The position numbers were made by a program, and so were the translations under genes. The notes below the pieces were generated by a model. That model ran no database searches. It had not been told where the DNA came from and saw nothing but the letters and a program-made list of their open reading frames with translations. Shown here piece by piece: positions 13,233 to 43,409 of a DNA stretch of 64,000 nt. Position 1 is the first letter of the stretch; every line of letters begins with the position of its first letter. This DNA comes from Escherichia coli (GTDB lineage: Bacteria; Pseudomonadota; Gammaproteobacteria; Enterobacterales; Enterobacteriaceae), in the NCBI RefSeq assembly GCF_045037415.1, contig NZ_CP173438.1; one strand, given 5' to 3'.

Positions 13233-15126
13233 TAATTTTCAGCTGAAAGCCATCATCACCGCCGTTGACAGGCTGTCCGGCCCGCTTAAAGGTATGCAGC
13301 GTCAGCTTAAGGGGTTTCAGAAAGAAGTCTCCAGCCTTGCTCTGGGCGCTGCCGGGGCGGGTACTGCAATAATGGGGGCACTGGCACTCCCTGTAAAATC
13401 AGCCATCACCCTTGAATCGAAGATGGCTGATGTCCGCAAAGTGGTGGACGGTCTGGATACGCCGGATGCGTTTAAGGCCATGACGGAGCAGGTACGCGCT
13501 TTGTCTACTGAGCTTCCCATGTCTGCAGACGGGATCGCGGAAATTGTGGCGGCTGGCGGTCAGGCCGGGATTGCACGTGATGAACTGATGCAGTTTGCCA
13601 CTGATGCGGTGAAGATGGGCGTGGCCTTTGATACCACGGCTGAAGAGTCCGGGCAGATGATGGCCCAGTGGCGTACTGCGTTTAATATGACGCAGGATGA
13701 AGTGGCTGGGCTGGCTGACAAAATCAACTACCTTGGTAATACCGGCCCGGCGAATGCGAAGAAAATCTCCGATATTGTTACGCGTATTGGTCCTTTAGGT
13801 GGTGTTGCAGGTGTGGCTTCCGGCGAAATCGCGGCAATGGGGGCAACCATTGCCGGGATGGGCGTGGAGTCAGAAATTGCCGCCACAGGGATCAAGAACT
13901 TCATGCTTTCCCTGACCGCGGGAAATTCAGCGACAAAATCGCAGAAACAGGCATTACGTTTTCTGCGGATCAATCCGAAGAAATTAGCTGCTGATATGCA
14001 GAAAGATGCCCGGGGAACCATGCTGTCTGTACTGGATGCGATGGCTAAAGTGCCTAAAGAAAAACAGGCAGCTGTGCTGAATGCCCTGTTCGGGAAAGAG
14101 TCTCTGGGCGCGATAGCACCTCTGCTGACTAACCTTGATTTGTTGCGTACCAACTTCAGGCGGGTTGCGGATTCCCAGCAGTATGGCAGTTCGATGCAGA
14201 AGGAATATGCTTCGAGGGCAGCGACGACGGAAAACCAGCTTTTACTTCTGCAAAATCAACTTGATGCCATTTCTTCCACTCTGGGGGAAACGTTTCTTCC
14301 TGAGGTTAATGATGGTCTTGAAGCGGTAAAACCGCTCCTTGAGGAAGTGAGAACGTTTGTCCGTGAAAACCCGGAGCTCGTTAAGACCATTGCTAAAATC
14401 GGTCTGGCTTTACTGACAGTGGGGGCCGCTGCAGGCTCTTTGTCCAGAATCATGAAAGTTCTCGGCGGTGTGATGAATATGACGCCTGCTAAGGGTCTGA
14501 TTGCTCTTCTGGTCGGTGCCGCTTACCTCATTATTGATAACTGGGAAACCGTAGGTCCTGTCATAAAAAAAGTCTGGCGCGTGGTGGATGAAACGGCGCA
14601 GGCGATGGGGGGATGGGAAACTGTTCTGAAAGCGATCGCCCTGTTTATGACAACCAAATGGGTTGCTGACGTTACCAAATCCATTACCGCAGTGACCAGA
14701 GAGATGCGTACGCTGGGGAAGGTGTCGGCAGAAACGGGATTGATGGGGAAAGGCCGCGGCTTTATCGGGAAGGCCGGGGTATATGGTTTTCTGGGAACCC
14801 TGATGTATGAGCCGGTTAAAGATACTCTGGAAAGTGTTGTTCCTGAAGATACAGTTAACTGGCTGGATAATAAAGGGCTGTTTCTGGCTTCAGACTGGAC
14901 GCCTTTTTTTGATCGTAAAGAGTACGAGCAGTATCAGGCCAGCCTGAGTCAGTACAAACCCAATGTTCCGCTGTTGAATCCATCTTCTTCCATGACACAG
15001 CACAGCGAACTGAAAGTCACGTTCGAGAATGCTCCGCCAGGCATGAAGATAATTGATGTACCGGGCAAAGCCGATCCCCTGATGAAAATCACGCACGATG
15101 TGGGGTATTCTCCATTCAGGCGATAA
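13225..15126 (+). CDS. Tail tape measure protein
   Basis: 633 aa, Ala/Gly-rich with helical repeats; position after the chaperone. Confidence 0.9.
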   Translation: MADNFQLKAIITAVDRLSGPLKGMQRQLKGFQKEVSSLALGAAGAGTAIMGALALPVKSAITLESKMADVRKVVDGLDTPDAFKAMTEQVRALSTELPMSADGIAEIVAAGGQAGIARDELMQFATDAVKMGVAFDTTAEESGQMMAQWRTAFNMTQDEVAGLADKINYLGNTGPANAKKISDIVTRIGPLGGVAGVASGEIAAMGATIAGMGVESEIAATGIKNFMLSLTAGNSATKSQKQALRFLRINPKKLAADMQKDARGTMLSVLDAMAKVPKEKQAAVLNALFGKESLGAIAPLLTNLDLLRTNFRRVADSQQYGSSMQKEYASRAATTENQLLLLQNQLDAISSTLGETFLPEVNDGLEAVKPLLEEVRTFVRENPELVKTIAKIGLALLTVGAAAGSLSRIMKVLGGVMNMTPAKGLIALLVGAAYLIIDNWETVGPVIKKVWRVVDETAQAMGGWETVLKAIALFMTTKWVADVTKSITAVTREMRTLGKVSAETGLMGKGRGFIGKAGVYGFLGTLMYEPVKDTLESVVPEDTVNWLDNKGLFLASDWTPFFDRKEYEQYQASLSQYKPNVPLLNPSSSMTQHSELKVTFENAPPGMKIIDVPGKADPLMKITHDVGYSPFRR

Positions 15127-15190
15127 TAACCCTACTTTAATCAAGTAGGGTTATTGAGTGGTAAAGTTTGTGCTGAATGTAGGAGAGAAT

Positions 15191-32245: not shown

Positions 32246-32837
32246 AGTGTATTCCTTATTGTTGCTTAGTTAGGGTAGTCACTATATTTGCGACTGAGCT
32301 GGTCGCTATTTTTAACCAGGCTGAAAAATTGAGTCAATATATCGAAAGCGGTAGTTGGCGGGCATAAGTATGTAATGATGATGCTGCACTGGTGTTGAAT
32401 ATTATTCACGCCAAACTTTCCTTATTGAGTAACGTCGTCGCAAGTGGCCTCAATGATTTTAGACCATTATCAGAGGTTTGGGGGCGATGGGGAGAGATTT
32501 AGTGCTGTGGAATGTTGTGGTACTGATGAATATTTATATCCCGGATTGGTAGGGAAAAAGTTTTTTTCATGCACTATTTTTGCAAATATTTCTATATGGG
32601 AAGCGGTTTTGTTGCGGATTAATTCATAAAGAAATGCATTTGGGTGTTGGCTGGAAGAGACGCTGGTAGATTTTATTGAGCCAGGAGGGGCGGGGTAATG
32701 TGCTGTATCGATATGCTTTGGCAATTGCGTGTGCCGCAGATGGAGATGAAATGCCAATAAAAAAGCCTGAGTTCGATGAGGGACGAACTCAGGCTGGTGT
32801 TATGTTTTACAGTAACACGCCTCGGCGCGTTGGCTGA

Positions 32838-37555: not shown

Positions 37556-38464
37556 TGCATCCTGAATAACTGGCGCGACAACGGGTTTGGCCGGGAAGAG
37601 ATATTTTCCCAACGTGACCAGTACCACCGCGAAGACAATTACGCCGAGCGCCAGCCATTCAATCTTCGACAGCGTTTCGCCACCCAGTCCCGTACCCAGC
37701 AAGACCGCGACCACCGGGTTAACGTAGGCGTAGCTGGTGGCGAGAGCCGGACTGACGTTGCGGATTAAATACATATAAGCGTTAATGGCGATAATCGAAC
37801 CAAACAGCGCCAGATAGCCGACCGCAAGGAAGCCTGAAAGGGAAGGGAGCGCCGTCAGTTTTTCACCCGCAATCATCGACGCAATCATTAACACCACGCC
37901 AGCCGCCAGCATCTCAATCGCACCCGCCATCATCCCTACAGGTAAGGTAATGCGCGAGCCATAAACCGAGCCAAACGCCCAGCTAATCGAGCCGATTAAA
38001 ATCAGAATCGCGCCCCATGGATTGCCGCTTAAGTTTCCACCGCTATTGAGCATGATGATTCCGGCAAGCCCAATGGCGATACCCACCCATTCCAGTTTGC
38101 GCGTTTTAATGCCAAACAGGCGGCTGAAGCACAGGGTAAAAAGGGGCACGGTTGCAACCACTACGGCGGCGATGCCGGAAGGAACATTTTGATGTTCGGC
38201 AACCGTCACCATGCCATTACCGACAGCCAGCAATAACAGGCCAATCAGCGCGGCATTGAGCAGCGGACGTAGCGGGGGAAGTTTGTGTCCGCGCAGTAGC
38301 AAAAATGCCAGCAATAAAATACCGGCTGCCAGGAATCGAACGCCCGCCATCATTAACGGAGGCCAGCTTTCCACGCCAATCCGAATGACAAAATAGGTTG
38401 AGCCCCAAATGATATACAACGCAAACAGCGCGCCAAAAAGCGGTAACAACTGGCGGAAACGCAT
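37544..38464 (-). CDS. yedA: EamA-family transporter YedA
   Basis: 306-aa polytopic membrane protein. Confidence 0.9.
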   Translation of the reverse strand: MRFRQLLPLFGALFALYIIWGSTYFVIRIGVESWPPLMMAGVRFLAAGILLLAFLLLRGHKLPPLRPLLNAALIGLLLLAVGNGMVTVAEHQNVPSGIAAVVVATVPLFTLCFSRLFGIKTRKLEWVGIAIGLAGIIMLNSGGNLSGNPWGAILILIGSISWAFGSVYGSRITLPVGMMAGAIEMLAAGVVLMIASMIAGEKLTALPSLSGFLAVGYLALFGSIIAINAYMYLIRNVSPALATSYAYVNPVVAVLLGTGLGGETLSKIEWLALGVIVFAVVLVTLGKYLFPAKPVVAPVIQDASSE

Positions 38465-38636
38465 AATCCCTCACGGCTGAAATAAAAAGGTGGTTCATAG
38501 TAAACGTGAAAATCATTCTGCTGGCGAGAGATATAATTGCACTTGATTGTTAAATAAATGTTGACCTGTGAAGCAAGTATCAGAGCTGCCGTTTTTGCTT
38601 CATACTTACACCCTTCAACAATAAAAATGAGAGGGA

Positions 38637-39554
38637 ATGCTTTTGGCCGGGAGTAGTTTACTGACGTTGCTCGATGATATCGCCACACTGCTGGACGATA
38701 TCTCCGTGATGGGCAAACTGGCGGCGAAGAAAACCGCCGGTGTATTAGGGGATGACTTATCGCTCAATGCGCAACAAGTTTCAGGCGTGCGGGCCAACCG
38801 GGAACTTCCCGTGGTCTGGGGCGTGGCGAAAGGTTCGCTGATCAATAAAGTGATTCTGGTGCCGCTGGCGCTGATCATCAGTGCGTTTATCCCGTGGGCG
38901 ATTACGCCACTGTTGATGATTGGCGGCGCGTTTCTCTGCTTTGAAGGGGTAGAGAAAGTGCTGCATATGCTGGAGGCGCGTAAACATAAAGAAGATCCGG
39001 CGCAGAGTCAGCAGCGTCTGGAGAAGCTGGCGGCGCAGGATCCGCTGAAGTTTGAAAAGGACAAAATAAAAGGGGCGATTCGTACCGATTTTATATTGTC
39101 TGCGGAAATCGTCGCCATCACGCTGGGGATTGTGGCAGAAGCGCCGTTGCTTAATCAGGTGCTGGTGCTTTCAGGCATCGCGCTGGTAGTGACCGTGGGC
39201 GTCTACGGTCTGGTAGGGGTTATCGTTAAGATTGATGACCTGGGGTATTGGCTGGCGGAAAAATCCAGCGCGCTGATGCAGGCATTAGGTAAAGGGTTAT
39301 TGATCATTGCGCCCTGGTTGATGAAAGCGTTATCGATTGTCGGCACGCTGGCGATGTTCCTCGTCGGCGGCGGGATTGTGGTACATGGTATTGCGCCGTT
39401 GCATCACGCCATTGAACATTTCGCCGGGCAGCAAAGTGCAGTGGTGGCGATGATATTACCGACTGTTTTAAATCTGATTCTTGGATTTATCATCGGCGGC
39501 ATCGTGGTGCTGGGAGTGAAAGCCGTAGCGAAAATGCGCGGTCAGGCACATTAA
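38637..39554 (+). CDS. yedI: DUF808 inner-membrane protein YedI
   Basis: 305 aa. Confidence 0.9.
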
Positions 39555-39632
39555 TACTCGCACAGGCTATTATGCAAAATTCGCCATCTTCAACTAAGGT
39601 GAACAAGTTTCACTCGAAAAAAGGAGGCGAGT

Positions 39633-39815
39633 ATGAGCTTTATGGTTAGTGAGGAAGTTACGGTTAAAGAGGGCGGCCCGCGGATGATTGTCACTGGATA
39701 CTCCAGCGGTATGGTTGAGTGTCGTTGGTATGACGGGTACGGGGTCAAGCGGGAAGCTTTTCATGAAACCGAGCTTGTTCCGGGGGAGGGGAGTCGTTCT
39801 GCGGAAGAAGTTTGA
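39633..39815 (+). CDS. yodC: Small protein YodC
   Basis: 60 aa MSFMVSEEVTVKEGGPRMIVTGY... Confidence 0.8.
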   Translation: MSFMVSEEVTVKEGGPRMIVTGYSSGMVECRWYDGYGVKREAFHETELVPGEGSRSAEEV

Positions 39816-39828
39816 AAGGGTATCATTA

Positions 39829-39859
39829 ACACCAGGCCGGATCACATCCGGCCTGGTGT
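39829..39859. terminator. Perfect 14-bp inverted repeat downstream of yodC (bidirectional hairpin; no U-tract)
   Basis: ACACCAGGCCGGAT-CAC-ATCCGGCCTGGTGT. Confidence 0.4.
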
Positions 39860-39985
39860 CCCAATGCCTGCAATGAATGATAGTCGCGTCTTATCATGCC
39901 ACCATTATAAAATTATCGCTGTTTTGCGGTACGCTATCGCCGGGTTATGCCAGAATCATAAAAAAGCAGGTTGGGAGTCGTCAGG

Positions 39986-42603
<2,618 letters not shown>

Positions 42604-43366: not shown

Positions 43367-43409
43367 TCTTATTCAGCCTGACTGGTGGGAAACCACCAGT
43401 CAGAATGTG

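Follow-up and report, generated by a model that had tools for sequence, protein, structure and literature searches.

Background

REPs are imperfect palindromes of 35-40 nt with a bulge in the stem and a GTAG at the 5' side (PMC3479197). TnpA-REP depends on both of these features: once the GTAG or the mismatched bulge has been removed, a REP is no longer bound or no longer cleaved (PMC3479197). Two or more complete REPs in alternating orientation, together with a linker, make up a BIME. REPs and BIMEs bind IHF, DNA polymerase I and gyrase (PMC3479197), and at the RNA level REPs raise mRNA stability (PMC3479197). Rho-dependent transcripts of E. coli have their steady-state 3' ends just after stable stem-loops that lack a U-tract (PMC6061677). 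These stem-loops, 24% of which are REPs, shield the transcripts from PNPase and RNase II (PMC6061677). REPs situated at most 15 nt from a stop codon reduce translation (Liang, Rudd and Deutscher 2015, according to the account given in PMC12306157).

Here we consider a hairpin downstream of yodC, a small stress gene of E. coli. A ChIP peak of sigma-S RNA polymerase is assigned to yodC in E. coli (PMC4447067), and in Salmonella YodC is a small protein under sigma-S control (PMC5437024).

A perfect hairpin between yodC and dgcQ

The window, that is, the whole 64-kb stretch of E. coli DNA analysed here, contains a perfect inverted repeat at positions 39829-39859, in the order ACACCAGGCCGGAT-CAC-ATCCGGCCTGGTGT. 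The 14-nt arms are 100% complementary and are separated by a 3-nt loop. Both the repeat finder and direct reading returned exactly the coordinates and letters of the 14-bp repeat reported in a preliminary description of this DNA. The features of the region are listed in Table 1.

Table 1. Features of the region between yodC and dgcQ. Positions are those of the window.
Feature	Position	Strand	Basis
yodC, 60 aa, DUF2158/YodC family	39633..39815	+	ORF list; matching E. coli annotation
Spacer from the yodC stop to the hairpin foot, 13 nt	39816..39828	+	direct reading
5' arm ACACCAGGCCGGAT	39829..39842	+	direct reading, repeat finder, comparison with canonical REPs
CCAG in place of the REP GTAG tag	39832-39835	+	
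REP foot GCCGGAT within the 5' arm	39836-39842	+	
Loop CAC	39843..39845	+	alignments with CRE1540 and other Escherichia
3' arm ATCCGGCCTGGTGT	39846..39859	+	direct reading, repeat finder
REP foot ATCCGGC within the 3' arm	39846-39852	+	
Former BIME linker that joined the two REPs, no T tract	39860..39882	+	alignment with the long allele and other Escherichia
Remnant of the second REP (Y-type, inverted), GTCGCGTCTTATCATGCCACC	39883..39903	-	alignments, motif position
dgcQ (diguanylate cyclase), next gene, annotated GTG start	39986..41680	+	SK1144 RefSeq annotation of identical sequence; ORF list

The upstream gene had been correctly named: in E. coli the 60-aa ORF preceding the hairpin is annotated as yodC, flanked by yedI and dgcQ, both on the same strand, and its stop codon TGA occupies 39813-39815. 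The start of dgcQ is ambiguous, as the frame opens with TTG at 39971, the RefSeq start is GTG at 39986, and an ATG follows at 40006 (window 39971-40008).

This is the longest perfect inverted repeat of the window and the only one with arms of at least 14 nt (loops of 3-10 nt). In 40 first-order Markov simulations of the window no repeat had arms of at least 12 nt, and the hairpin pattern with at most three mismatches had one match in the window versus none in 100 shuffles. The repeat is well above chance expectation. The window contains no further copies of the hairpin at up to three mismatches. The 14-bp RNA stem can form on either strand, and the 33-nt element folds at -27.5 kcal/mol. A scan of positions 38000-42000 against Rfam, with E-values up to 10, produced three chance-level matches, none of them at the hairpin.

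The bases following the stem are CCCAATGCCT. The preliminary description had noted that there was no flanking U-tract and that the hairpin was not a simple terminator, and on both counts we agree. Where an intrinsic terminator has a U-rich tract of 7-8 nt, the tail here is CCCAATGC, with one T in eight positions, and a terminator scan of 39400-40200 yielded no sites.

Other inverted repeats were seen elsewhere in the window. Two long perfect ones, an AT-rich 13-bp repeat at 15125-15155 (AATAACCCTACTT/AAGTAGGGTTATT) and a 12-bp repeat at 32764-32795 (AGCCTGAGTTCG/CGAACTCAGGCT), are not followed by T tracts. The same is true of a perfect 11-bp hairpin, CTGACTGGTGGGAAACCACCAGTCAG, at 43378-43403. 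Its sequence also lies within the context printed by Adams et al. for the curated "primary" dsrB Term-seq 3' end at K-12 position 2024594. The hairpin at 43378-43403 is a local precedent for a U-less hairpin that marks an mRNA end.

REP features of the hairpin

In a REP, a foot of the form GCC[G/T]GAT ... ATC[C/A]GGC encloses the upper stem and the loop. A search of K-12 bases 1-50000 with the REP-foot pattern found five canonical REPs, all of them with GTAG and an enclosed segment of 16-18 nt. The sole match to the same pattern in the 64-kb window is the yodC hairpin, with CCAG for GTAG. Its foot encloses 3 nt (CAC) versus the usual 16-18. Against five REPs per 50 kb of K-12, the window region, with no match beyond this remnant, seems unusually REP-poor.

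The tag is lost in K-12 as well, where TCAG takes the place of the window's CCAG. All 14 pairs of the hairpin are Watson-Crick, leaving no bulge. With a 37-nt query containing the hairpin, 4146 genomes gave a single locus each; the two "places" per genome counted at the median arise because the palindrome matches itself on both strands. This disposes of the reading, left open in the preliminary description, that the hairpin is a standard REP present in many copies. Structurally, too, it is not a standard REP: it has no GTAG tag, no bulge and no upper part of 16-18 nt. The term "REP-like", used there as well, is right as far as descent is concerned: the foot GCCGGAT/ATCCGGC is kept and a canonical REP pair occupies the orthologous site in other genomes.

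As it departs from REPs in length, tag, bulge and copy number, the hairpin is a REP remnant and not a working REP, and it passes for one on location and descent alone. Its location, between yodC and dgcQ, is that of an extragenic REP in a putatively transcribed 3' region. Descent is evident in that 1216 E. coli genomes and all six loci of other Escherichia carry full REPs at this very site, with unchanged flanks. The window does not contain a BIME, which would require at least two complete REPs in alternating orientation with a linker: only the remnants at 39829-39859 and 39883-39903 are present. That no REP feature is annotated here in the K-12 RefSeq record is no evidence either way, as the copy of the record that was used lists none at all, the well-known REP near 5565 included.

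Two alleles in E. coli

The survey set consisted of 5426 complete E. coli genomes, and the 451 bases around the yodC ORF match 5362 of them over at least 80% of their length. In some genomes the region matches in two pieces and is 67 nt longer. One of these is CRE1540, where identical flanks enclose ACACCCGACCGGAT-GTGGCGCTCACGTCGC-ATCCGGTCGGGTGT, then GCCTGATGCGACGCTATCGCGTCTTATCATGCCTAC and a partial duplication. The site in CRE1540 is a full REP followed by a second REP in inverted orientation, i.e. a BIME.

The long allele, like the site in the other Escherichia lineages sampled, is a full REP (GTAG-GCCGGAT-16 nt-ATCCGGC) with an inverted partner. It occurs in 1216 of the 5426 genomes (22%) and the short hairpin in 4146 (76%). 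The two numbers add up to 5362, that is, to every genome that carries the region, and thus intermediates are essentially absent. In K-12 MG1655 the short allele is located at 2028144-2028174 on the minus strand and has a single C-to-T change that turns one pair into G.U.

Compared with the long allele, the first REP of the window allele is 13 nt shorter at its top, and the GTAG tag and the bulge of the stem are lost too. The loop CAC marks the point where these 13 nt of upper stem and loop are missing. The second REP is also damaged: its other arm is short by about 11 nt net, and its GTAG (minus strand) has become GTGG. Full copies of the second REP in other lineages read GCCTGATGCGACGCTGTCGCGTCTTATCATGCCTAC, and in strain E69 and E. 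whittamii the second REP copies at the yodC locus have GTAG. The remnant GTCGCGTCTTATCATGCCACC is still able to form a short 6-bp stem with ATGATA at 39877-39882.

Additional length changes were observed at this site. The long allele (L001, about 620-700) contains a tandem duplication of approximately 54 nt covering the tail of the second REP and its flank, and in strain E69 and E. whittamii (L009, L011, 1680-1980) the whole REP pair is present in two tandem copies. On a small scale, the yodC 3' region is a hotspot for changes in length that involve REPs.

Downstream regions of yodC in related bacteria

With YodC as the query we collected 80 loci, one genome per species: six from other Escherichia and 74 from other genera, namely Salmonella, Citrobacter, Kosakonia, Enterobacter, Phytobacter, Trabulsiella, Buttiauxella and others. 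In all six loci of other Escherichia (E. albertii, E. whittamii and four divergent records), yodC is followed directly by a full REP and a second, inverted one, and two of the six have two tandem REP sets. Several of them retain an intact GTAG and the consensus, for example GTAGGCCGGATAAGGCGTTCACGCCGCATCCGGC, which is built like the five canonical REPs of K-12 and like the REP crystallised with TnpA-REP (PMC3479197).

No REP was found after yodC in the 74 loci of other genera. Instead, about 72 of these show, no more than 60 nt from the stop codon, a hairpin with Ts behind it, typically AAAACGCCCGG-loop-CCGGGCGTTTTT (GCCCGG-loop-CCGGGC) with a T tract after it. This count comes from our own script. 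The terminator scan calls the Kosakonia yodC terminator; it is conservative and misses those of Salmonella and Enterobacter, where A/T pairs are absorbed into the stem. In loci of the Citrobacter freundii group (L024, L025, L029-L031, L034, L043, L045 and L053, about 1684-1800) the GCCCGG terminator is absent after yodC, and a conserved AT-rich block with an inverted repeat of its own (TCTCAACCATTAGTTATATTTATCATTTTGGTGAGA...) is shared between them. This block may be a different insertion or a regulatory region.

Comparison of the alleles and relatives makes it very probable that the hairpin is what decay has left of one REP in a two-REP BIME inserted downstream of yodC. The most parsimonious history, with its direction taken from the outgroups, would have three steps. 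A REP pair would have replaced the intrinsic terminator after yodC in the ancestor of Escherichia. Flanking pairs (ACACCAG/CTGGTGT) would then have extended the stem in the lineage leading to E. coli and Escherichia sp. MOD1-EC7003 (L005). Finally, both REPs would have lost internal sequence in what is now the majority haplotype of E. coli, so that the remaining REP foot and the seven complementary flanking pairs would make up the perfect 14-bp stem with its 3-nt loop. The deletion path could be one 13-nt deletion and a point change, or two deletions that spared CAC.

Conservation of the stem

Eight distinct haplotypes, six short and two long, were chosen from the spread of matches, not at random, and compared pair by pair. 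Standard pairs occupy 97.3% of the pair cells, and this value falls to 25-38% when the partner is shifted by one to three columns. Both sides have changed with pairing retained at three of the 14 pairs. Pair 4 shows a series of states: C-G in the window, U.G in K-12, U-A in strain RMDEC465. Mismatches are found at pair 2, in the common O157-like and PKF11 haplotypes and in RMDEC465, and at pair 13, in one strain; thus the constraint on the full 14 bp is loose. All short haplotypes examined have at least 12 contiguous pairs, with energies of -21 to -28 kcal/mol. In stability, the short hairpin of the window (-27.5 kcal/mol) equals the outgroups' full REPs (-20 to -30 kcal/mol).

Paired changes can also be produced by template-switch correction of quasi-palindromes or by replacement with another REP copy, and thus the covariation is not in itself proof of selection on the RNA.

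Candidate function and alternative explanations

The likeliest function, one that we regard as about evenly poised between right and wrong, is that of a stem-loop at the 3' end of the yodC mRNA that keeps exonucleases out and fixes where the transcript ends. It is preferred because the hairpin sits exactly where the relatives have the intrinsic terminator of yodC. The transcript would start from a sigma-S-dependent promoter, and the stem-loop would act like other REPs or U-less 3' stem-loops: by blocking the 3'-5' exonucleases PNPase and RNase II it would stabilise the short yodC transcript and set its 3' end. Since the hairpin has no U tract, polymerase would be released further downstream by Rho or would read on into dgcQ. 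The stem has the properties of the protective class, being stable (-27.5 kcal/mol), U-tract-less and situated in a 3' UTR. As a whole, the explanation that combines an origin from a REP with a role at the RNA 3' end is the best one available, and we hold it to be somewhat more likely right than wrong.

The 100 nt downstream of the stem contain 25 C and 20 G, a mild excess of C, and thus no obvious rut site. In the available part of the data of Adams et al. the nearest Rho region is at K-12 2027287 on the minus strand, about 730 nt into dgcQ, with a score of 2.67. This corresponds to about position 40716 of the window, and it suggests that Rho prematurely terminates some of the transcription that enters dgcQ. 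As far as the curated Term-seq tables of the same authors were available, covering three growth conditions, they list no 3' end near K-12 2028144, none between 2025257 and 2043181, and none beginning with 2028. Low expression of yodC may be the cause.

The main rival explanation is that the hairpin is a neutral leftover of a selfish REP pair after two deletions, its symmetry being a product of palindrome mutation. We consider this doubtful, although it retains a sizeable share of the probability. It would account for the damage to both REPs of the BIME in one and the same haplotype, for the loss of the GTAG tag and bulge that the transposase requires, for natural haplotypes with mismatches at pairs 2 and 13, and for the lack of a K-12 3' end in the available Term-seq tables of Adams et al. 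It does not sit well with the stable stem of 12 or more contiguous pairs (-21 to -28 kcal/mol) in every short haplotype examined, with the three pairs that changed on both sides leaving pairing intact, or with the presence at this position of some strong hairpin, be it a terminator, a REP or a remnant, in every relative. This last observation suggests that the 3' end of yodC needs a hairpin. Alternatively, the strong stem (-27.5 kcal/mol), placed as the canonical terminators of other Enterobacteriaceae are, might be a weak, non-canonical U-less intrinsic terminator that insulates dgcQ from the yodC promoter. This is improbable: the 10 nt after the stem (CCCAATGCCT) contain two Ts only, the scan finds nothing, models of intrinsic termination require a U-rich tract for pausing and release (PMC6061677), and no K-12 3' end is listed in the available part of the Adams et al. 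tables. A slightly better, though still unlikely, candidate is a brake on translation, which would be compatible with the 3'-end role. With a spacer of 13 nt between stop codon and stem, the hairpin might stall terminating ribosomes, and mRNA cleavage and tmRNA rescue would then lower the level of YodC. However, the distance is 20 nt if counted from the REP foot (39836) and 16 nt if counted from the former GTAG (39832), both beyond the published limit of 15 nt, and the spacing is near the threshold however it is measured.

Two further explanations place the function of the site in the DNA. A perfect dyad in the intergenic region upstream of dgcQ could be the operator through which a dimeric protein regulates dgcQ or yodC. 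Given the known affinities of REPs and BIMEs (PMC3479197), it could also be a REP-type site that binds gyrase, IHF or DNA polymerase I. The preliminary description had offered a protein-binding palindrome as one of its readings, and it finds no support here: the two E. coli alleles preserve base pairing but place their half-sites 13 bp closer together or further apart, and within the half-sites two base pairs have changed in complementary fashion. A hairpin fits the variable spacing and the complementary changes and an operator of fixed geometry does not, and we rejected the operator reading on these grounds. Moreover, yodC and dgcQ are neighbours outside Escherichia too, yet the element is not found there, and the BIME architecture used by the known REP-binding proteins is broken. 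A protein-binding site is very improbable. Even less credible is an active REP or REPIN unit that is bound, cut and copied by a REP-associated transposase. The foot sequence is kept and the site is extragenic, but the tag is CCAG (TCAG in K-12) and the stem is perfect, while TnpA-REP needs GTAG and a bulge (PMC3479197), and the element occupies a single locus per genome in 4146 genomes. With GTAG and bulge missing and only one copy present, an active mobile REP was excluded; the remnant would no longer be a substrate for the REP transposase.

The role at the mRNA 3' end can be extended further, in a way that we consider improbable. The U-less REP hairpin that replaced the terminator might have created a tunable gate between yodC and dgcQ, with partial sigma-S-dependent read-through into dgcQ. 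If so, the amount of read-through, of YodC translation or of mRNA stability would depend on whether a genome has the 31-nt remnant or the full REP pair (-27 vs -41 kcal/mol). Since dgcQ encodes a cellulose-regulating diguanylate cyclase, the two alleles would then be a natural polymorphism in c-di-GMP signalling.

Implications

The 3' end of yodC appears to have changed hands, from an intrinsic terminator to an inserted REP pair and from the pair to a stump, with a stable stem-loop kept at every stage. This relay is in keeping with the published idea that a hairpin at the 3' end, terminating or not, is needed by E. coli mRNAs. Perfect palindromes in intergenic regions of E. coli can be REP stumps, and REP catalogues based on the consensus may miss them. 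The polymorphism with two haplotypes could be used to test how the length and stability of a REP affect the neighbouring gene. Beyond annotation the case matters little and leaves current understanding unchallenged, being one of ordinary REP decay at the 3' end of a gene.

Comparison with known systems

The REPs of Liang, Rudd and Deutscher (2015) lie close to a stop codon, as the yodC stem does (13 nt), but the latter is not a full REP. The yodC intrinsic terminators of Salmonella, Citrobacter, Kosakonia, Enterobacter and other genera share with the Escherichia hairpin the position relative to the stop codon, the orientation and a GC-rich hairpin; they differ in being unrelated, non-homologous sequence, with an A tract upstream and a T tract downstream. 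The protective 3' stem-loops of Dar and Sorek 2018 (PMC6061677) are likewise stable, located in the 3' UTR, devoid of a U-tract and in part derived from REPs; the excess of C over G downstream is weak at yodC. The closest described elements are the Z- and Y-type REPs and the BIMEs. From these the yodC hairpin is set apart by seven additional flanking pairs outside the REP consensus, an inner segment of 3 nt, the CCAG tag, the unbulged stem, its occurrence in a single copy and the truncation of its partner REP. It resembles them in being extragenic and just past a stop codon, in its foot GCCGGAT...ATCCGGC and in forming a stable hairpin on the mRNA strand, and it is orthologous to the full REP and inverted REP present in 22% of E. 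coli genomes.
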